DNA of 40,699 bases, from IMG/VR virus record IMGVR_UViG_647533158_000007. One strand, 5' to 3'. Source of the stretch: a virus. Its lineage: Duplodnaviria; Heunggongvirae; Uroviricota; Caudoviricetes. This document shows positions 1,297 through 40,699 of this stretch, in pieces. The notes beneath the pieces were generated by a model. It searched no databases and was not told the origin of the DNA. It worked only from the letters and a program-made list of their open reading frames with translations. The position numbers were made by a program, and so were the translations under genes. Each line of letters starts with the position of its first letter. Position 1 is the first letter of the stretch.

Positions 1297-3252
1297 ATGA
1301 GCTTTCTTTTGAAGACTGACAAAACATTGTCTAAAAATTACCAGCCAGGAGTTGATGGACTCCGTGCTGTTGCCGTCATTTTAGTTCTTATATTCCATGT
1401 AGGGTTCAGTAGTGTTCCAGGAGGGTTTGTTGGCGTTGATGTATTTTTTGTTATTTCTGGTTATCTGATAACTGGAATAATTTTTAATCAAACTGAGAAG
1501 GGAACTTTCAGTTACATTAATTTCATGTTAGCCAGGATAGCAAGACTGTACCCGGCTCTTATAGCAACGCTGATCGCCGTTTTTGCTGGATGCTTTATTC
1601 TGTACTCCCCTTCTGATTTTGTTAGCGTATCTAAATCAGCAATCTATGCTTTGTACTCAGCATCAAATATATTTTTTGCACAAAGCGTTGGTTATTTCGA
1701 TACATCATCAGAAATAAATCCATTGTTGCACACATGGTCTCTTGGTGTAGAACAGCAGTTCTATCTTGTATGGCCTCTGATTATCGGAGCAGCATATTTA
1801 GTAAAAAAGAGCCTTGTGCCATGGGTTCTGGTTATTATTAGTATTGCTTCTCTGGCATCCTCTCAGTGGGCAACTATAAACATGCAAACTGAAGCATACT
1901 ACTGGATGCCGTTCAGGGTTTTTGAGTTGTCTTTCGGCGGACTCGCATTCTTCATTTCTCGATGGATAAAACCATCTGAACTAACGAAGGAGTCTATGAT
2001 GGCTGCGGGACTTGCGATGATAGTATCATCTGCGTTGCTTTACTCATCATCAACTCAGTTCCCTGGTTTACATGCCATGATTCCCGTATTGGGTACCATG
2101 CTTTGCATTCTTTCACATGATGCAAAATACGCTGGATTCGCTGTGAATAACAGGGTCAGCGTTACGATCGGCCTGATATCTTATTCAGTTTATCTAATTC
2201 ACTGGCCTATTATTGTGTTTTACAAATACTGGATATATAGAGAGTTAAATGATATCGAGAAAGCATCATTGATTTTATCTTCGCTGGCTGTTGGATTCTT
2301 AATGTACAACGCAATAGAAAATAAATTCAGAAAGATAAAAATAAATGAGTTTTGCTACAAATCAGTATTGCTTTTATCATTAACTATATTGGTTATGATT
2401 TCGTATTCATCTTCAATAAAAGACAACGGATTTGCATTTAGAATACAAAATTATAAAGAAAACATGGAAATGCTCAAGCCTGGATTTAAAGAATATTTAT
2501 TCGGAGGCTTTGGGGTTAAGCAAGGTGAAATGGTAGTTCTTGGAGATAAAACCAAAAAGCCATCATTTGTTTTCATGGGTGACAGTTATGCAAGACAGTA
2601 TTCATTAGCCATGAGTGAATTTCTTGCAAAGAGAAATCTATCAGCAGCAGCATTCTTCGCTGATGGGGCATATCTATCAAATAGCGTTTACGTTACAGAA
2701 AAAGGGAAGGTTTCTGTATATGGTGTGAAGATAGGAACAAAAGCGATAGATTACTCTAAATATAATAAGATACCACTTGTTTATGCACAATCATGGCTTA
2801 GGTACATGGAGATGCTATCTGATAAAGATGGTAATGTGTATAAATTCAACGGAGACCATGATTATATGAAATTCAATGCTTCCGTTATTAACAATATTCA
2901 AGAGTACACAAATCAGAAAGTAATTGTTATTGGAAACCACCCGGCAGCAATAGGCTCTGACGGCGGTCTTTCTTGTGTGAGCCGACCTTCATATGTTGAA
3001 AAGAAATGCATTGATAGTATTTTCAGCACAGAAAGCGGTGATAGGTTAGATAGCAATAATTATTTAAACAAATGGCTATCAGATAACGGAAGTATAAAGT
3101 TTATAAACCCTTATGATTTCATGTGTAGGAATGGGAGATGTAACCTAGTATCTGACAAAGGTGACGTTATGTATTCTGATGAGTATCATCTATCAAGATA
3201 TGGAGCAAGAAAGGCAATTGAAGGGTTTGGAAATATAATTATCGATATATAA
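1297..3252 (+). CDS. O-antigen acyltransferase (acyltransferase-3 membrane domain + C-terminal SGNH-like domain), lysogenic conversion
   Basis: 651 aa; N-terminal GLRAVAVILVLIFH...GGFVGVDVFFVISGYLIT typical of AT3 family; multiple hydrophobic helices; markedly AT-rich; located between int and tailspike as in serotype-converting P22-like phages. Confidence 0.8.
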   Translation: MSFLLKTDKTLSKNYQPGVDGLRAVAVILVLIFHVGFSSVPGGFVGVDVFFVISGYLITGIIFNQTEKGTFSYINFMLARIARLYPALIATLIAVFAGCFILYSPSDFVSVSKSAIYALYSASNIFFAQSVGYFDTSSEINPLLHTWSLGVEQQFYLVWPLIIGAAYLVKKSLVPWVLVIISIASLASSQWATINMQTEAYYWMPFRVFELSFGGLAFFISRWIKPSELTKESMMAAGLAMIVSSALLYSSSTQFPGLHAMIPVLGTMLCILSHDAKYAGFAVNNRVSVTIGLISYSVYLIHWPIIVFYKYWIYRELNDIEKASLILSSLAVGFLMYNAIENKFRKIKINEFCYKSVLLLSLTILVMISYSSSIKDNGFAFRIQNYKENMEMLKPGFKEYLFGGFGVKQGEMVVLGDKTKKPSFVFMGDSYARQYSLAMSEFLAKRNLSAAAFFADGAYLSNSVYVTEKGKVSVYGVKIGTKAIDYSKYNKIPLVYAQSWLRYMEMLSDKDGNVYKFNGDHDYMKFNASVINNIQEYTNQKVIVIGNHPAAIGSDGGLSCVSRPSYVEKKCIDSIFSTESGDRLDSNNYLNKWLSDNGSIKFINPYDFMCRNGRCNLVSDKGDVMYSDEYHLSRYGARKAIEGFGNIIIDI

Positions 3253-23129: not shown

Positions 23130-23313
23130 CTCTTTCACTCCATCCGCGATGAACCATAAGAACGTCGTTGACGATGGCGTGCATTTTCCCGTCTTTATCA
23201 TCAACGTATTTTCTGACCGTACCGCGACTACATTTCAGTCTGCGTGCTACTTCTGTTTGGTTTCCGTATGCTTCAACGAGCATGTCTGGAATGGTTTTTA
23301 CTGAGAACGTCAT
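23107..23313 (-). CDS. ninH: NinH
   Basis: 68 aa; matches recalled lambda NinH ([37 protein letters not shown]...). Confidence 0.8.
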
Positions 23314-23921
23314 GCGGCCTCACTTCTGCTGTTTCGCAGGTCTTTGAGTTTCTGCTGATACTCCGCCTTGATGGCCCTGCACTCTTCGACAGTCCAGCGA
23401 TGGCGGTTATGGTTTGATTCGATTTCGTCTACTGCTTCCTGCCCGATGCGGTTAATTAGTTCGACGCGATACGGAACGAGATTTCCGCTTTTGTGCTGGT
23501 TGCACACCACGCATTGCTTGTGAATATTGCGTTCATCAAATCGGAGTTGAGGTGCCGCAGCAGTTGTCCGGTAATGCCCGGCATCCCACTGAGCAGACGT
23601 GAGCGTTCCGCACGAGATACATGGTAAGTCGCGGTCTCTTTCTCTGATGAAGGCGTTTACGGCTTGTTGGGCTTGTTTAATCCAGTAACTGCGGGGCTTT
23701 AAGGCGAGTTTTCGAATCTTAAGTTTATCTTTCTGTTTCTGCTCCTCTCGTCGTCGTTTCTTCTCTGCTGCCTTTTCCGCTTTTTCGCGTTCTTTGCTTC
23801 GTCGTTCGAGTGCTATCTTGGTTCCACACTCTGGAGAGCACCACCACTGATTGGCGAATGCAGGGTGAAACCATTCCCGACATTCATCGTTTTTACATCG
23901 TCTTCGCGCTGGTTTAGCCAT
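23310..23921 (-). CDS. ninG: NinG (Rap-like recombination endonuclease)
   Basis: 203 aa; Cys-rich N-terminus, Lys/Glu-rich linker; matches recalled lambda NinG. Confidence 0.8.
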
Positions 23922-23974
23922 CGTCTTCTTCCTCGTGCATCGAGCTATTCGGATCGCTCATCAGTTCTGCGCAG

Positions 23975-24484
23975 TTATGGTCTGCCATGGTTTTCATGAA
24001 AACCCAGTTCTTTTTCTGCCCTCTTCCTTTCTGCAATAGCGTCAATGATGCTAGCAAATATTCCAAGATATTTGGTGCGCCCATCTACGCATATATTCGC
24101 AATCCACTTACATCTCTCTTTATTGAAATATACTCCAGTCACTCCTGACGAATTGGTTATTTTTCTCTTTTGGTTCTGTGCATTCTGTTGGTGTGTAACC
24201 AATCGAAGATTAGATAGCCTATTATCTGACCTTACTCCATTTATATGATCAATTTTATACCCTAATGGAATCTCACCATTATTTATCATCCATATAACGT
24301 GGTGAGCATAAGTAATTACACCATCGATAGTTAACATCCTATAACCATCACTCCTAATGTAACCAGCAACACTGCCAACCTTAACATTATTAGAAGGAGA
24401 CACTTTCCATCTAAGTACACCTAAAACATCATCATATGATAATTTATTTCTTAATTCGTCTATGTTGCTTATATTTCTCATCAT
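23975..24484 (-). CDS. HNH endonuclease with C-terminal AP2-like DNA-binding domain (homing-endonuclease-like)
   Basis: 169 aa; HNH motif DHINGVRSDNRLSNLRLVTHQQN; AP2-like segment GVTGVYFNKERCKWIANICVDGRTKYLGIFASIIDAIAERKRA; strongly AT-rich compared with flanking nin genes. Confidence 0.8.
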   Translation of the reverse strand: MMRNISNIDELRNKLSYDDVLGVLRWKVSPSNNVKVGSVAGYIRSDGYRMLTIDGVITYAHHVIWMINNGEIPLGYKIDHINGVRSDNRLSNLRLVTHQQNAQNQKRKITNSSGVTGVYFNKERCKWIANICVDGRTKYLGIFASIIDAIAERKRAEKELGFHENHGRP

Positions 24485-24623
24485 GTTCCACCATATTTAA
24501 GCATTCATATATACAACGCTCACACACGTGAACTTCCAGCACATGCAGCTTCTGACCGCAGTTAGCGCACGCTAAAGCCCGCTCGACGCTTTCTTGTTCG
24601 TAACTTCGATTTGGGTCAATCAC
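24444..24623 (-). CDS. ninF: NinF-like small Cys-rich protein with altered C-terminus (GTG start, below ORF-track size cutoff)
   Basis: 59 aa from GTG overlapping ninE stop (GTGA), RBS GAGGAA; hand translation (M)[36 protein letters not shown]... resembles recalled lambda NinF until the region overlapped by the HNH gene start. Confidence 0.4.
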
Positions 24624-24802
24624 CTTGTTTTCCTCGCACGTTCTCTAAGCCACCGGATATCCCACAGGTGAGCCGTGTAGTTGAAGGTTTTTACGTCAGA
24701 TTCTTTTGGGATTGGCTTGCGTTTATTTCTGGAGCGTTTCGTTGGAAGGTATTTGCAGTTTTCGCAGATTATGTCGGTGATACTTCGTCGCTGTCGTCTC
24801 AT
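24620..24802 (-). CDS. ninE: NinE
   Basis: 60 aa from internal Met of the 90-aa ORF; [23 protein letters not shown]... matches recalled lambda NinE; ATGA overlap with upstream gene. Confidence 0.75.
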
Positions 24803-25326
24803 GCCGCCCTCCTGACGCCCTGCCCGATCGCCATCAATGCCGCTTTGGATACGGTAGTAAACATCCGTCGAGGACTGATGAACGGTCGCCAAATCAGCAG
24901 CATGGAGCCTTTGCTGTTTCCCTTCTTCTCCAGCCCTGTCGATGGTTCGATAAAATTAATCCGTCCATCAGTGATAATGCGAACTTCGTCGACACTCTCC
25001 AGAGCCTTGCTGAACCATCCGACTGACATATCCTCTGGCACAAGCATAACTACCGTCTGTCGCTGTTGTATGCACTGCTCAGCGGCTTTTTCCACCCACG
25101 GCCTGATATTGCTGTACGGTGGGTTATTCCAGATTGCACCGTGGCTTACCCACTCAGAATTGAGCGCGTCGTCGGCCTCAGTTAGCCAGTGAGCGCATAA
25201 AGCATTTTTGTCGCTCGCTGCCGAATCCAGCCAGAATCCAAACTCAATATCCAGTGCATCAAAAAGCCAAAGCGGCGTTTGCCAGCAGTCCTTGTCGTGT
25301 GCTGGCGTATTTGATTTGATAGTCAT
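24799..25326 (-). CDS. DNA N6-adenine methyltransferase (phage Dam-like, orphan)
   Basis: Start at internal Met (MTIKSNT); contains NPPY motif ([14 protein letters not shown]); ATGA overlaps with ninB and ninE; no adjacent restriction endonuclease. Confidence 0.75.
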
Positions 25327-25763
25327 GCAGCCCGATCTCCCCATCTCGCTTTCCACTCCAGAGCCAGTCTCGCTTCGTCTGACCACTTAACGCCACGCTC
25401 TGTACCGAATGCCTGTATAAGCTCTAATAGCTCCGCAAATTCGCCTACACGCATCCTGCTGGTTGACTGGCCTATTACCACAAAGCCATTCCCGGCAAGG
25501 TTAGGAACAACATCCTGCTGCTTTAATGCTGCGGTAAACACACACTTCCAGCTTTCTGCATCCAGCCAGCGACCATGCCATTCAACCTGACGAGAGACGT
25601 CACCTAAGCAGGCCCATAGCTTCCTGTTTTGGTCTAAGCTGCGGTTGCGTTCCTGAATGGTTACTACGATTGGTTTGGTTGGGTCTGGAAGGATTTGCTG
25701 TACTGCGTGAATAGCGTTTTGCTGATGTGCTGGAGATCGAATTTCAAAGGTTAGTTTTTTCAT
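25323..25763 (-). CDS. ninB: NinB (recombination mediator)
   Basis: Start at internal Met (MKKLTFEIRSPAHQQNAIHAVQQILPDP...), near-identical to recalled lambda NinB. Confidence 0.85.
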   Translation of the reverse strand: MKKLTFEIRSPAHQQNAIHAVQQILPDPTKPIVVTIQERNRSLDQNRKLWACLGDVSRQVEWHGRWLDAESWKCVFTAALKQQDVVPNLAGNGFVVIGQSTSRMRVGEFAELLELIQAFGTERGVKWSDEARLALEWKARWGDRAA

Positions 25764-25783
25764 GACTTCCCTCTCCCCCAAAT

Positions 25784-25840: not shown

Positions 25841-27721
25841 TTAATACTCCGTCACGTTTTCCTGTCGCCACGCCTCGTCATATTCCGATTTCGGCATATT
25901 GGCGATGTAGCTATATGGCGATCCTGATTCAAGTTGCAGGAACTGGTGCGATTGCTCGTCAAGGAACAGCGGGACGCCACCTTCCCAACCTTCGCCGTTA
26001 CGTTGTTTTTCAAGCATCAAAACAGATGCCGGAGATGCCAGTAGCTGTTCGTCCTTCTCCGACATCTTTTCACCACTCTGAACTCTCTGTAACGCTCTCT
26101 CGCGAGCCTTGTTACGCCAGATGATGAAAAGGTTGTCTGTCAGGTCTGTTATCGCTCCAGAGCCTTTTACGTCCATTTTCCCGGTTGGTTTTTCTTCGCT
26201 GTCTCCTTTTCGCGAGTGAGTAACGAGAATGACGTGGGAGTTTGTTTTGTTTTTGAAGTCGCAAATCGAGTCAACAAACGCCTTCTGCCCGTTATAGTCA
26301 TCGTCGCCTATGCCACATTTCATCAGGCTGTCGATGATGAATAACTGGATCCCGTATCGGCGGCGAGCGTAGTCGAATATTTCGATCAGCCTGTCGGCTT
26401 TCGCCGTTCCGGTCAGGCCAAACACCCAAAGTCTTTCGTCATAAAATTTAAATGCAGAGTCAATTTCCAGCACTGGCGGCATCTTGCAGCACGTCGCCTG
26501 ACGGGTAAGGCGCTTAAGGAGAATACCAGGCTTCAGCTCAAGTGACGCGATGCAGGTCTTCACACCCTGACGCATTGCCTCAAGTGCCATATGCCCGACA
26601 ACCTCCGTTTTTCCGTGACCGTTCACACCATTGACCAGCGTCAACTCGGCCTCACGGAACTGGAATTTATCTGCCAGAGATTCCCACGGTGGATTAAACA
26701 GATACTGCTGCTTGCCGTAGAAAGCGTTGATAGTGTCCTGGTAAAACTCTCGCGCGCTGTAGAGTTCTTCAGGATCGAAGTATGATGCCGTGCCGATGTA
26801 CTGCCAGATTTCATCCTCGGTAACACCGTTCATCAGGCATTCGTTGATGTCTTTGTACGGCAGAGTAACAAGACGGCAACGATGTTCACCGAGTCGGCTT
26901 GCGATTTCCCTTGCGGCTTCACGACCAACATCATCAACGTCCATCGAGATGAATATTTCCTCAAACCTGTCGAGGTTGTGATACTCAAACTCAATCCACT
27001 GTTGCTTAGCACCTTTCCCGCCACCAAACGGCACGGATAACGCAGAGATGCCGTATTGCGCATAGCTCATACAATCAATTTCGCCTTCGCAAAGTACAAC
27101 CGCCCTCACGCCAGCGTCCAGAGCCTGCCATCCGAACAGACAAGGTTCACAATCACCTTCTGCCATAATGACTTTCTTCCCGTCCGGGCGCTCAGTGCTG
27201 ATTCGCTTGACCTGCAACAACTCACCATCGCGTTTGTACGGAATCACCAGAGCATCCAGTTCTCGTTCTCCATTCCACACCTTGCCGCTGACAACCTCGT
27301 AGCGCTTTACGACTTCTGGCGATATGCCACGCGATTGCAGGTACTCAAGATGGGATTCTGTCCTGGTAACGTAGCGGGCTATTTTCTTGCGGTCAGGTCT
27401 GGAGAATTTCTTCTCACGTTTGGCATCGAAATGGTGATCGTCATCCTTGATTCCGAGAAAGGCTTTCGCTTCCTGCATAGCCTGATGCAGGTTAATTCCA
27501 CGACATGCCATCCACAAATCAAGCATGTCACCGCCGTCTCCCTCAGCGAAATCAGCCCATTTTTTCTTGCCGCTAAGGTTGACCTTAAGGCTGTTTCCCT
27601 TGTCACCGTTAACGTTACCGGCAACCCACTCATGCCCCTCTTTCTTGCCGTTTGGCAACAGGTGCGGAGCCACCCTGTCAACCTGCGCCCAAAGCAGGTC
27701 GCTGAGTTCACTTGGCGTCAT
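25841..27721 (-). CDS. Bifunctional DNA primase / replicative helicase (Toprim domain + DnaB/RecA-like ATPase)
   Basis: 626 aa; Toprim-like acidic cluster (VLCEGEIDCMS, DVDDVGRE); Walker A GVNGHGKT; Walker B-like LFIIDSL. Confidence 0.85.
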   Translation of the reverse strand: MTPSELSDLLWAQVDRVAPHLLPNGKKEGHEWVAGNVNGDKGNSLKVNLSGKKKWADFAEGDGGDMLDLWMACRGINLHQAMQEAKAFLGIKDDDHHFDAKREKKFSRPDRKKIARYVTRTESHLEYLQSRGISPEVVKRYEVVSGKVWNGERELDALVIPYKRDGELLQVKRISTERPDGKKVIMAEGDCEPCLFGWQALDAGVRAVVLCEGEIDCMSYAQYGISALSVPFGGGKGAKQQWIEFEYHNLDRFEEIFISMDVDDVGREAAREIASRLGEHRCRLVTLPYKDINECLMNGVTEDEIWQYIGTASYFDPEELYSAREFYQDTINAFYGKQQYLFNPPWESLADKFQFREAELTLVNGVNGHGKTEVVGHMALEAMRQGVKTCIASLELKPGILLKRLTRQATCCKMPPVLEIDSAFKFYDERLWVFGLTGTAKADRLIEIFDYARRRYGIQLFIIDSLMKCGIGDDDYNGQKAFVDSICDFKNKTNSHVILVTHSRKGDSEEKPTGKMDVKGSGAITDLTDNLFIIWRNKARERALQRVQSGEKMSEKDEQLLASPASVLMLEKQRNGEGWEGGVPLFLDEQSHQFLQLESGSPYSYIANMPKSEYDEAWRQENVTEY

Positions 27722-38048: not shown

Positions 38049-38249
38049 ATGCAACACGAACTACAGCCTGATTCACTGGTTGATTTGAAATTCATCATGG
38101 CTGATACTGGCTTCGGTAAAACCTTCATCTATGACCGGATTAAGTCCGGAGACCTGCCTAAAGCCAAAGTTATCCACGGGCGAGCAAGATGGTTATATCG
38201 TGACCATTGTGAATTCAAAAATAAGCTTTTAAGCCGCGCCAATGGGTAA
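38049..38249 (+). CDS. xis: AlpA-family excisionase / DNA-binding regulator
   Basis: 66 aa; winged-helix-like MADTGFGKTFIYDRIKSGDLPKAKVIHGRARWLYRD; directly upstream of att and int. Confidence 0.7.
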   Translation: MQHELQPDSLVDLKFIMADTGFGKTFIYDRIKSGDLPKAKVIHGRARWLYRDHCEFKNKLLSRANG

Positions 38250-38587: not shown

Positions 38588-38774
38588 NNNNNNNNNNNNN
38601 NNNNNNNNNNNNNNNNNNNNNNNNNNNNNNNNNNNNNNNNNNNNNNNNNNNNNNNNNNNNNNNNNNNNNNNNNNNNNNNNNNNNNNNNNNNNNNNNNNNN
38701 NNNNNNNNNNNNNNNNNNNNNNNNNNNNNNNNNNNNNNNNNNNNNNNNNNNNNNNNNNNNNNNNNNNNNNNNNN
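38588..38774. other. Assembly/scaffold gap (187 N)
   Basis: Continuous run of n; ORFs containing X across it are artefacts. Confidence 0.99.
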
Positions 38775-39010
38775 TGATACTGGCTTCGGTAAAACCTTCA
38801 TCTATGACCGGATTAAGTCCGGAGACCTGCCTAAAGCCAAAGTTATCCACGGGCGAGCAAGATGGTTATATCGTGACCATTGTGAATTCAAAAATAAGCT
38901 TTTAAGCCGCGCCAATGGGTAAAATAGCGGGTAAAATATTTCTCACATCTAAAAAACACCATTCCAATCAACCCCCTGCCTCGTCAAGTAGATGTCTGCA
39001 GGGGACACCA
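38775..39010 (+). repeat. Second copy of xis 3' end + att arm + core (identical to 38102-38337), ending at the phage-host junction
   Basis: 236-nt exact duplicate; copies diverge immediately after ...ctgcaggggacacca (core at 38996-39010), after which unrelated host sequence follows. Confidence 0.85.
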
Positions 39011-39451: not shown

Positions 39452-40699
39452 CTATATTGCTGAAGGTACAGGCGTTTCCATAACTATTTGCTCGCGTTTT
39501 TTACTCAAGAAGAAAATGCCAAATAGCAACATCAGGCAGACAATACCCGAAATTGCGAAGAAAACTGTTTGGTAGCCTGCGTGGTCAAAGAGTATCCCAG
39601 TCGGCGTTGAAAGCAGCACAATCCCAAGCGAACTGGCAATTTGAAAACCAATCAGAAAGATCGTCGACGACAGGCGCTTATCAAAGTTTGCCACGCTGTA
39701 TTTGAAGACGGATATGACACAAAGTGGAACCTCAATGGCATGTAACAACTTCACTAATGAAATAATCCAGGGGTTAACGAACAGCGCGCAGGAAAGGATA
39801 CGCAACGCCATAATCACAACTCCGATAAGTAATGCATTTTTTGGCCCTACCCGATTCACAAAGAAAGGAATAATCGCCATGCACAGCGCTTCGAGTACCA
39901 CCTGGAATGAGTTGAGATAACCATACAGGCGCGTTCCTACATCGTGTGATTCGAATAAACCTGAATAAAAGACAGGAAAAAGTTGTTGATCAAAAATGTT
40001 ATAGAAAGACCACGTCCCCACAATAAATATGACGAAAACCCAGAAGTTTCGATCCTTGAAAACTGCGATAAAATCCTCTTTTTTTACCCCTCCCGCATCT
40101 GCCGCTACGCACTGGTGATCCTTATCTTTAAAACGCATGTTGATCATCATAAATACAGCGCCAAATAGCGAGACCAACCAGAAGTTGATATGGGGACTGA
40201 TACTAAAAAATATGCCGGCAAAGAACGCGCCAATAGCATAGCCAAAAGATCCCCAGGCGCGCGCTGTTCCATATTCGAAATGAAAATTTCGCGCCATTTT
40301 TTCGGTGAAGCTATCAAGCAAACCGCATCCCGCCAGATACCCCAAGCCAAAAAATAGCGCCCCCAGAATTAGACCTACAGAAAAATTGCTTTGCAGTAAC
40401 GGTTCATAAACGTAAATCATAAACGGTCCGGTCAAGACCAGGATGAAACTCATACACCAGATGAGCGGTTTCTTCAGACCGAGTTTATCCTGAACGATGC
40501 CGTAGAACATCATAAATAGAATGCTGGTAAACTGGTTGACCGAATAAAGTGTACCTAATTCCGTCCCTGTCAACCCTAGATGTCCTTTCAGCCAAATAGC
40601 GTATAACGACCACCACAGCGACCAGGAAATAAAAAAGAGAAATGAGTAACTGGATGCAAAACGATAGTACGCATTTCTGAATGGAATATTCAGTGCCAT
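39452..40699 (-). CDS. Host MFS transporter, LacY/oligosaccharide:H+ symporter family
   Basis: 415 aa, 12 predicted TM helices; LacY-family signatures (D-K-L-G-L-K loop, FDQQ, GPKNALL, EVP, FKY) by comparison with recalled E. coli LacY. Confidence 0.8.
   Translation of the reverse strand: MALNIPFRNAYYRFASSYSFLFFISWSLWWSLYAIWLKGHLGLTGTELGTLYSVNQFTSILFMMFYGIVQDKLGLKKPLIWCMSFILVLTGPFMIYVYEPLLQSNFSVGLILGALFFGLGYLAGCGLLDSFTEKMARNFHFEYGTARAWGSFGYAIGAFFAGIFFSISPHINFWLVSLFGAVFMMINMRFKDKDHQCVAADAGGVKKEDFIAVFKDRNFWVFVIFIVGTWSFYNIFDQQLFPVFYSGLFESHDVGTRLYGYLNSFQVVLEALCMAIIPFFVNRVGPKNALLIGVVIMALRILSCALFVNPWIISLVKLLHAIEVPLCVISVFKYSVANFDKRLSSTIFLIGFQIASSLGIVLLSTPTGILFDHAGYQTVFFAISGIVCLMLLFGIFFLSKKREQIVMETPVPSAI

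Follow-up and report, generated by a model that had tools for sequence, protein, structure and literature searches.

The 40,699-nucleotide stretch of DNA analyzed here in its entirety (the window; IMG/VR record IMGVR_UViG_647533158_000007) is a P22-like E. coli prophage of the CUS-3/Sf6/HK620 type in which the ninF gene is interrupted by an inserted cassette. We consider it probable, at roughly three chances in four, that the cassette is a free-standing homing endonuclease gene (HEG) that targets ninF, encodes an enzyme of HNH ('HNN')-AP2 architecture, and consists of a 539-bp insert with little besides its open reading frame (ORF). A sequence-only reading of this DNA had proposed that a free-standing homing endonuclease invaded the nin operon and replaced the 3' end of ninF. 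The foreign composition of the insert, its sharp boundary relative to empty loci, its intact catalytic residues, and the lack of any intron signal in the scans described below agree with the invasion, but the 3' end of ninF was not replaced. The features that define the cassette and the divided host gene are the following (nt, nucleotides; aa, amino acids).

23974-24512, minus strand: inserted cassette, 539 nt, 35.3% GC, delimited by alignment to the unoccupied ninF of phage SfI and of 80 IMG/VR loci.
23975-24484, minus strand: HNH-AP2 endonuclease ORF, 169 aa in the window (ORF list, Pfam, PHROG).
24176-24310, minus strand: nuclease domain of the HNH_3 family (His-Me finger, 'HNN' type), residues 59-103 (Pfam PF13392, alignment with I-HmuI, Foldseek).
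24005-24151, minus strand: AP2-fold DNA-binding domain, residues ~112-160 (structural model and Foldseek; sub-threshold in Pfam).
23974-23988, minus strand: 3' end of the cassette, ATGGCAGACCATAAC, matching codons M-A-D-P-N of a Salmonella-type ninF at 14 of 15 nt.
24513-24517, minus strand: three substitutions in ninF codons 36-37 (CACTGC to CGTTGT, H36R), present in 30 of 30 insert-bearing copies and in none of 80 empty alleles.
24444-24623, minus strand: hybrid NinF' ORF, 59 aa, made of native codons 1-35 (or 1-37) and a cassette-encoded tail of 22-24 aa (Pfam, translations).
23914-23973, minus strand: retained 3' part of ninF, codons 38-56 and the stop codon, which overlaps the ninG start (ATGGCTAA); identified by comparison with empty alleles.

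Comparison with phage SfI and the 80 IMG/VR loci places the cassette between ninF codons 37 and 38. In the empty alleles ninF continues uninterrupted through the site (...GTGTGTGAG CAC TGC/TGC GCA GAA CTG..., the slash marking the insertion point), and the window reads ...GTGTGTGAG CGT TGT/ATATATG...(539 nt)...CCATAAC/TGC GCA GAA CTG.... The junctions are identical in all 30 pairs examined, and all 80 sampled empty alleles are continuous at the same point. A virtual empty site, built by joining the window's two flanks through 6 nt taken from the empty alleles, aligns in one piece and over 100% of its length to real prophages, with identities of up to 98.6%, and 362 E. coli genomes cover at least 80% of the construct. 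The simplest description that the alignments suggest is a clean 539-nt insertion together with the three substitutions in codons 36-37 (Fisher p 1e-22 to 1e-27, uncorrected for relatedness). The cassette comprises a leader of 30-33 nt with a Shine-Dalgarno sequence, GGTGGA, the HNH-AP2 ORF, and 1 nt past its stop codon.

Several observations made in the sequence-only reading are borne out by these comparisons. The 169-aa ORF does lie between ninG and ninE, it is much more AT-rich than its surroundings (35.3% GC for the insert, with 51.4% and 48.9% for the 1 kb on either side), and the NinF-like frame at 24444-24623 does change its C-terminus, diverging from the native sequence past codon 35-37, at a point 33 nt ahead of the HNH start codon. 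The supposed loss of the ninF 3' end is not: the last 19 codons and the stop survive downstream of the cassette, and ninF is therefore split rather than truncated and replaced. Alignment to insertion-free lambdoid phages and prophages gives a sharp indel boundary. That the HNH gene is ancestral to the nin region, with the empty ninF alleles arising by secondary precise deletion, is a formal alternative for any presence/absence polymorphism, and nothing specific favors it here. We regard it as very improbable, since empty alleles encode an uninterrupted NinF at ~99% of sites, the Pfam NinF domain spans the junction, the GC content of the cassette is 14-16 points below that of its flanks, and the closest relatives of the protein are at most 52% identical and reside in unrelated virulent phages such as Klebsiella Webervirus.

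The product of the cassette is a predicted nuclease, and by sequence its gene is a free-standing gene of the homing-endonuclease type with an I-HmuI-like HNH ('HNN')-AP2 organization. It matches the Pfam family HNH_3 (PF13392) at 70.1 bits, with a cutoff of 24.8 (E=1.2e-19), and PHROG 99, 'HNH endonuclease' (7.6e-71). PADLOC returns only its generic 'homing endonuclease' models for this ORF and the NCBIfam search returns no match, on which grounds we reject membership in a defense system. Residues D79, H80, N92, N101, and N104 do not vary across 45 aligned homologues, and the first four of these align with D74, H75, N87, and N96 of the SPO1 homing endonuclease I-HmuI (1u3e). These I-HmuI residues are reportedly the metal-binding and general-base residues, as described in the 2004 structure paper of Shen and colleagues. 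The catalytic motif noticed in the sequence-only reading is thus present in full. I-HmuI is also the only meaningful sequence match in the PDB, apart from a weak phmmer match to 3igm. An AlphaFold2 model computed on the 45-sequence alignment (mean predicted local distance difference test score 88.6) has the beta-beta-alpha-metal fold, with strands at 76-80 and 93-97 followed by a helix at 98-103, and its top Foldseek match in the PDB is again 1u3e (probability 1.0), albeit with an E value of only 2e-3 and a global TM-score of 0.46.

The AP2-type domain proposed in the same reading falls below the Pfam gathering threshold (PF00847, 15.1 bits against 33.3, E=0.028, residues 113-144), but finds support in the model and among the homologues. 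The modeled C-terminal part has the elements of an AP2 fold, with strands at 118-121, 126-133, and 136-143 and a helix at 146-160. Foldseek matches it to the AP2 domains of Arabidopsis TEM1 (7et5, 7et4) and AtERF1 (1gcc) with probabilities of 0.99-1.0 and a root-mean-square deviation of 1.4-3.1 Å over 44-59 columns; target TM-scores are 0.40-0.66 and E values only 0.05-0.3. The AP2 domain of Plasmodium PF14_0633 (3igm) is a weaker match (probability 0.51-0.72). Precomputed annotations place PF00847 together with PF13392 in 17 of 84 homologues, and the columns of G114, G117, and V118 are conserved in the homologue alignment. Taking these results together, we accept the HNH-AP2 architecture. The cysteine-less 'HNN' subset of HNH enzymes has been described as typically joined to an AP2 domain (PMC2248197).

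At position 24482 the window carries a G that is private to it, where 29 other complete copies have an A. The G creates the sequence ATGATG, which gives the HNH ORF an extra N-terminal methionine (169 instead of 168 aa) and changes N to D in the NinF' tail. All 29 of the other complete copies that were examined have ATA where the window has its first ATG, so their ORF starts at 24481 and is 168 aa long, as in the 369-member cluster of 99%-identical proteins (P0001).

An endonuclease gene lying within a coding sequence could be borne by an intron or an intein, with ninF restored by RNA or protein splicing, and group I introns do encode many I-HmuI-like HNH enzymes, I-HmuI included (PMC2248197). 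An Rfam scan of positions 23300-25300 at E of at most 1 matched no family, and the ORF occupies 507-510 of the 539 nt, leaving no room for an intron core. No two of NinF', the HNH ORF, and the ninF remnant share a reading frame, stop codons are present, and Pfam finds no Hint or intein domain. We accordingly exclude group I and group II introns as well as inteins, and give splicing of any kind next to no credence.

The insertion divides the host gene into two ORFs that are, by sequence, separately translatable. The upstream one, NinF' (24444-24623), shares 41 nt with the start of the HNH ORF, and across the junction the 25-position core of the Pfam NinF family is still recognized in it (3.7e-11, residues 19-42). 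The downstream remnant, an ORF of 24 codons at 23914-23988, begins with an in-frame ATG supplied by the cassette. From ninE to ninG there is no gap between successive frames, which either overlap or abut. The four native NinF junction variants that we retrieved read EHCC, SDCC, EASC, and EACC, and the cysteine that they share is Cys38. Since this invariant residue now resides on the downstream piece, it is doubtful that NinF function is retained. The notion that the cassette restores a fourth zinc ligand is weakened, as the cysteine common to the four native variants is Cys38 and not Cys37.

We found no sigma-70-like site on the coding strand within the cassette, site counts being no higher than expected from shuffled sequence, and the predicted RNA fold around the HNH start shows no significant structure (z=-1.1). 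A promoter, terminator, or hairpin sequestering the ribosome binding site, such as the HEGs of T4 and Aeh1 have, was therefore rejected for lack of any promoter-like or significant RNA-structure signal. Expression of the cassette presumably rides on the early-right operon.

The cassette occurs in a variety of genomic settings. We observed seven upstream and seven downstream gene classes in 14 combinations, including ninF genes with lambda-type (MIDQNRSY...) and P22-type (MLSPSQSLQYQ...) N-termini, and the downstream neighbor may be ninG, a KilAC antirepressor gene, or another HNH gene. Nucleotide diversity of the cassette is 0.52%, with 22 segregating sites and 17 haplotypes. In the same loci ninF diversity is 3.1% in the left 76 nt and 1.9% in the right 53 nt, and the right arm of the empty alleles has a diversity of 4.7%. 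The diversity of the cassette is thus ~4-6x lower than that of the adjoining ninF codons, which argues that the cassette reached these older alleles recently. Of 30 complete copies, 29 have an intact ORF, and the polymorphisms of the ORF comprise 13 synonymous and 8 non-synonymous changes (ratio of non-synonymous to synonymous polymorphism, pN/pS, 0.16), from which it follows that the protein is under purifying selection. These patterns say that the cassette is younger than the ninF alleles that carry it, has been kept functional, and occupies many backgrounds, as homing predicts; homing in the sense of biased inheritance, and target specificity, we infer from such population patterns only.

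Markers close to the insertion point show a pattern that could reflect co-conversion or plain hitch-hiking. Those at -5, -4, and -1 are in absolute linkage with the cassette and those at +9, +22, +33, +37, and +51 are significantly associated with it (the right flank runs to +57); on the left flank, markers from -16 outward show no association.

Several NinF-family variants have rearrangement breakpoints at codons ~33-36, beside the insertion point. One has an internal duplication after E35 (P0093), another a duplicated LEVHV (P0163), and a further one is a fusion of NinF(1-35) to YbcO found on 19 contigs (P0165). The endonuclease target may have been broken repeatedly and left these breakpoints as scars, or they may be a coincidence.

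Cassette DNA has no match among 50,697 deposited phage records, including in sensitive mode. At the protein level the deposited phages offer no more than 52% identity, the closest relatives (47-52%) being HNH endonucleases of T1-like Klebsiella (Webervirus) and Escherichia phages, for example KpS2 gp45. Among 5426 complete E. coli genomes, 45 carry the cassette at 98% identity or higher, in 47 places that are all annotated within ninF. The flanks match ~4992 places in 2240 E. coli genomes, and the occupancy of ninF is therefore ~1%. A further ~30 IMG/VR contigs carry the cassette. In species-representative genomes a peptide-pattern scan found no relative and a 20-nt right-junction pattern matched only four unrelated genomes; a degenerate-pattern search of IMG/VR for diverged left junctions returned only the known contigs and 22 unrelated matches. 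In E. coli strain FXCREC035 (NZ_CM135826.1) the cassette-only query matches two places, and two resident prophages may both carry it.

RefSeq annotates the locus as an 'HNH endonuclease' between two 'NinF' fragments, and our literature searches found no paper describing a HEG in ninF, although 'NinF' alone is swamped by unrelated uses of the string. In E. coli E2348/69 (L115; NC_011601.1, 735973-736399) PGAP cuts the HNH ORF to a 150-nt 'pseudogene' and gives the name 'protein NinF' to an out-of-frame overlapping ORF of 51 aa. The 168-codon ORF is intact by translation, and we reject the pseudogene status as an annotation artifact.

HNH genes of other kinds were seen nearby in several genomes. 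On two IMG/VR contigs (L011 and L023) a second HEG-type ORF, unrelated to the first, takes the place of ninG immediately after the ninF remnant; the one at L023:4564-5073 encodes 169 aa and matches NUMOD4 (1.1e-6) and HNH_3 (6.2e-11) in Pfam. E. coli 14EC007 likewise has a second 'HNH endonuclease' in the stretch downstream of ninF, which may be a recurrent landing place for HEGs. In two Salmonella nin regions with a native Salmonella-type ninF (L172 and L173, 2641-3174), an ORF with HNH_3/zf-His_Me_endon and helix-turn-helix domains follows rusA.

A diverged copy of the endonuclease, 85% identical (~83% at the DNA level), is present on a metagenomic contig (L113), where it is inserted in a diverged ninF (...IHVCEKC/IYVLL...), with MADPNGQMLEKDDG* and a YbcO gene coming after it. 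Native Salmonella-type NinF ends in ...CCAELMADPNGQMLEEDDE. In DNA, the native Salmonella allele (L171) reads TTA ATGGCAGACCCTAAC GGACAA, L113 reads ..AACC ATGGCAGATCCCAAC GGACAG, and the cassette in the window ends ..AACC ATGGCAGACCATAAC and passes straight into the E. coli-type TGCGCAGAACTG. The first 8 nt of ATGGCAGACCATAAC, ATGGCAGA, are the native end of the endonuclease gene (..E-N-H-G-R, an end that is conserved in unrelated endonuclease homologues) and are also ninF codons M-A-D. This double identity places the right junction of the L113 type within an 8-nt microhomology, with loss of the CAEL codons. The E. coli cassette has seven more bases, CCATAAC in place of CCCTAAC, and the one changed base creates the TAA that ends its ORF; ATGGCAGACCATAAC thereby supplies both the stop codon of the HNH ORF and the in-frame ATG of the ninF remnant. 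By sequence the seven extra bases resemble a relic left over from a ninF allele of the Salmonella type, and would suggest that the element moved from one type of ninF allele to another, carrying a scrap of flanking 'exon' along.

The alternative that deserves the most attention is that the cassette is an immobile relic, a single old illegitimate insertion that does not home and has been shuffled passively by lambdoid recombination, its protein being either functionless or domesticated to cut competitor phages or stimulate recombination. The mosaic nature of lambdoid nin regions is notorious, and the start and stop of ninF coincide exactly with module boundaries. A single junction type is present in all copies, so that one origin suffices, and such an origin combined with mosaic recombination could itself put one insertion into many backgrounds. 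An occupancy of ~1% suits a relic, and an aggressive drive element might be expected to be commoner. Several cassette-bearing polylysogens have further, cassette-less ninE-ninG matches in the same genome (six places to one cassette in NZ_CP148466.1). It has also been argued that HNN-AP2 genes may move independently of sequence and later decay (PMC2248197). Other points that weigh against homing concern the comparisons themselves. The empty-allele set is biased, as it consists of the best 80 matches to SfI NinF, the Fisher tests of marker association ignore relatedness, and the argument from the Salmonella-type scrap comes down to 6 matching bases among the 7 that lie outside the shared 8-nt microhomology. 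Among the 80 empty IMG/VR loci we found none that forms an isogenic pair with an insert-bearing one, and the closest one-sided matches have 3-4 mismatches over 1.3-1.5 kb.

Nevertheless, we judge an immobile relic unlikely. A functionless protein does not account for an ORF that is intact in all but one of the complete copies with so low a pN/pS, nor an old insertion for its low diversity relative to the ninF around it. Passive shuffling into at least seven downstream modules would require crossovers within the 57-nt remnant, and the diverged copy in another type of ninF, together with the allele relic, points to movement from allele to allele. A possible domesticated role against competitors would share the same biochemistry as homing.

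A homing endonuclease targeting ninF could operate as follows. Without a promoter of its own, the HNH gene would be transcribed with the early-right (nin) operon once the phage infects or the prophage is induced, and its translation would depend on a Shine-Dalgarno sequence of its own, GGTGGA, located within the new NinF' tail. In a co-replicating lambdoid genome the enzyme would recognize uninterrupted ninF around ...GTGTGTGAGCACTGC/TGCGCAGAACTG... and nick or cut it, the predicted target vicinity on the empty allele being GAGCACTGC/TGCGCAG. With the occupied allele as template, repair by Red/Erf of the phage or RecA of the host would copy the cassette in, with conserved ninF sequence providing arms of ~95 nt and ~57 nt. 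The occupied allele would escape cleavage, its site being interrupted and its codons 36-37 changed, and operon polarity would be limited because the chain of ninE, NinF', HNH, the 24-codon remnant, and ninG overlaps or abuts throughout.

A more elaborate form of this model can be imagined, in which the cassette is a 'polite' gene-splitting HEG. It would provide a substitute NinF' C-terminus (C-x-x-C at 34-37), a stop codon of its own, and an ATG from which the remnant is translated anew, preserving the chain of frames into ninG and allowing NinF to work as two pieces; it would also have hopped from a Salmonella-type to an E. coli-type ninF through microhomology-mediated repair with a 7-nt 'exon' piece. 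We offer this only as a speculation with the odds well against it.

In the window the minus-strand gene order is ninB-dam-ninE-ninF'-HNH-'ninF-ninG, as assigned from the ORF list and Pfam scans. The neighbors are:

25323-25781, minus strand: ninB (ORF list and Pfam).
24799-25386, minus strand: Dam-family methyltransferase gene (ORF list and Pfam).
24620-24802, minus strand: ninE, the upstream neighbor, whose stop codon overlaps the GTG start of ninF (GTGA); Pfam NinE 9.6e-43, residues 31-88 of the listed ORF.
23310-23921, minus strand: ninG (Rap-like junction endonuclease), the downstream neighbor, whose ATG overlaps the ninF stop; Pfam NinG 2.4e-91.

The closest deposited phage is Sf6 (AF547987/NC_005344), with 99.0% identity over the flanks; in the same ninE-ninG interval it carries IS911, another mobile element in this small region. 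The replication gene of the window (25841-27721, minus strand) encodes a 626-aa fusion of Toprim and DnaB-like/AAA_25 domains, a primase-helicase that differs from lambda P and from the P22 gene 12-type helicase, and the same gene lies upstream of the occupied ninF in E2348/69. Adjoining the integrase gene (1-1158) is a gene for a 651-aa AT3-SGNH acyltransferase (1297-3252, plus strand), with GC at or below 36% over ~1.9-2.9 kb, which is probably a lysogenic-conversion gene that modifies O-antigen. At the right end of the window is a host gene for a LacY-family sugar symporter (39452-40699, minus strand; Pfam LacY_symp 1.7e-193), and the window is therefore a prophage with some host chromosome rather than a free phage genome. 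A run of 187 N at 38588-38774 produces an artefactual minimum in the GC profile and is flanked by a duplicated AlpA/excisionase-like ORF (..DTGFGKTFIYDRIKSGDLPKAKVIHGRARWLYRDHCEFKNKLLSRANG; 38049-38249 and about 38722-38922) and the start of an integrase-like ORF. The run may represent masked sequence, or else a join made in assembly close to the end of the prophage.

The element has clear relatives among known systems. I-HmuI of the Bacillus phage SPO1 (PDB 1U3E), its best structural and PDB sequence match, has the same 'HNN' His-Me finger and a similar length (174 as against 169 aa), although identity is only ~21%; I-HmuI is a nicking enzyme encoded by a group I intron and has a C-terminal helix-turn-helix region, whereas the ninF enzyme is free-standing and ends in an AP2 fold. 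Free-standing HNN-AP2 genes are mobile inhabitants of T1, Rtp, T5 (hegG/hegJ), RB16/RB43, and the Xanthomonas phages Xp10/OP1/Xop411 (Magnani et al. 2004 as cited in PMC2248197). Like the ninF HEG, these genes of virulent phages are small free-standing ORFs with an AP2 domain and an HNH domain lacking the cysteine dyad, and show presence/absence polymorphism. They differ in being intergenic and often at varying sites, whereas the ninF HEG occupies one fixed site in a coding gene of temperate lambdoid/P22-like prophages.

Gene-splitting HEGs are also known, with mobE in nrdA of Aeromonas phage Aeh1 and mobA in a topoisomerase gene of T4 as examples (PMC2988022). Both are, as in ninF, free-standing HEGs of the HNH family that lie within a coding region and divide one gene into two ORFs with no intron or intein. 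The split nrdA of Aeh1 is essential and its halves were shown to reassemble into an active enzyme, whereas ninF has 56 codons and is non-essential, and its split is seen in sequence alone. Gene 31 of the P22-like Salmonella phage epsilon34 encodes an HNH endonuclease fused to eaE (PMC2629481). It resembles the ninF HEG in being an HNH gene of the homing-endonuclease type in an accessory early gene of a P22-like temperate phage, but it belongs to the early left operon, is an in-frame fusion, and represents another HNH lineage, with relatives in Gram-positive phages.

The HNN-AP2 architecture, gene-splitting HEGs, and HNH genes in P22-like phages are therefore already known, and the HEG in ninF adds one more case; the current understanding of HEGs and of the nin region is unchanged by it. 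The cassette does explain the two 'NinF' fragments, and the occasional false HNH pseudogene, that annotation pipelines report at this locus, and if our interpretation is true it shows in compact natural form how a HEG can split a gene with neither intron nor intein. Lambdoid phages are among the best-studied recombining phages, and the empty alleles of lambda, P22, and Sf6-like phages are ready targets. If the enzyme is active, it would provide a simple and genetically tractable case of HEG drive among temperate lambdoid phages and co-resident prophages. Should the 'polite' version also hold, lambdoid nin regions would be a natural and tractable system in which HEG drive could be measured in temperate phages and prophages.

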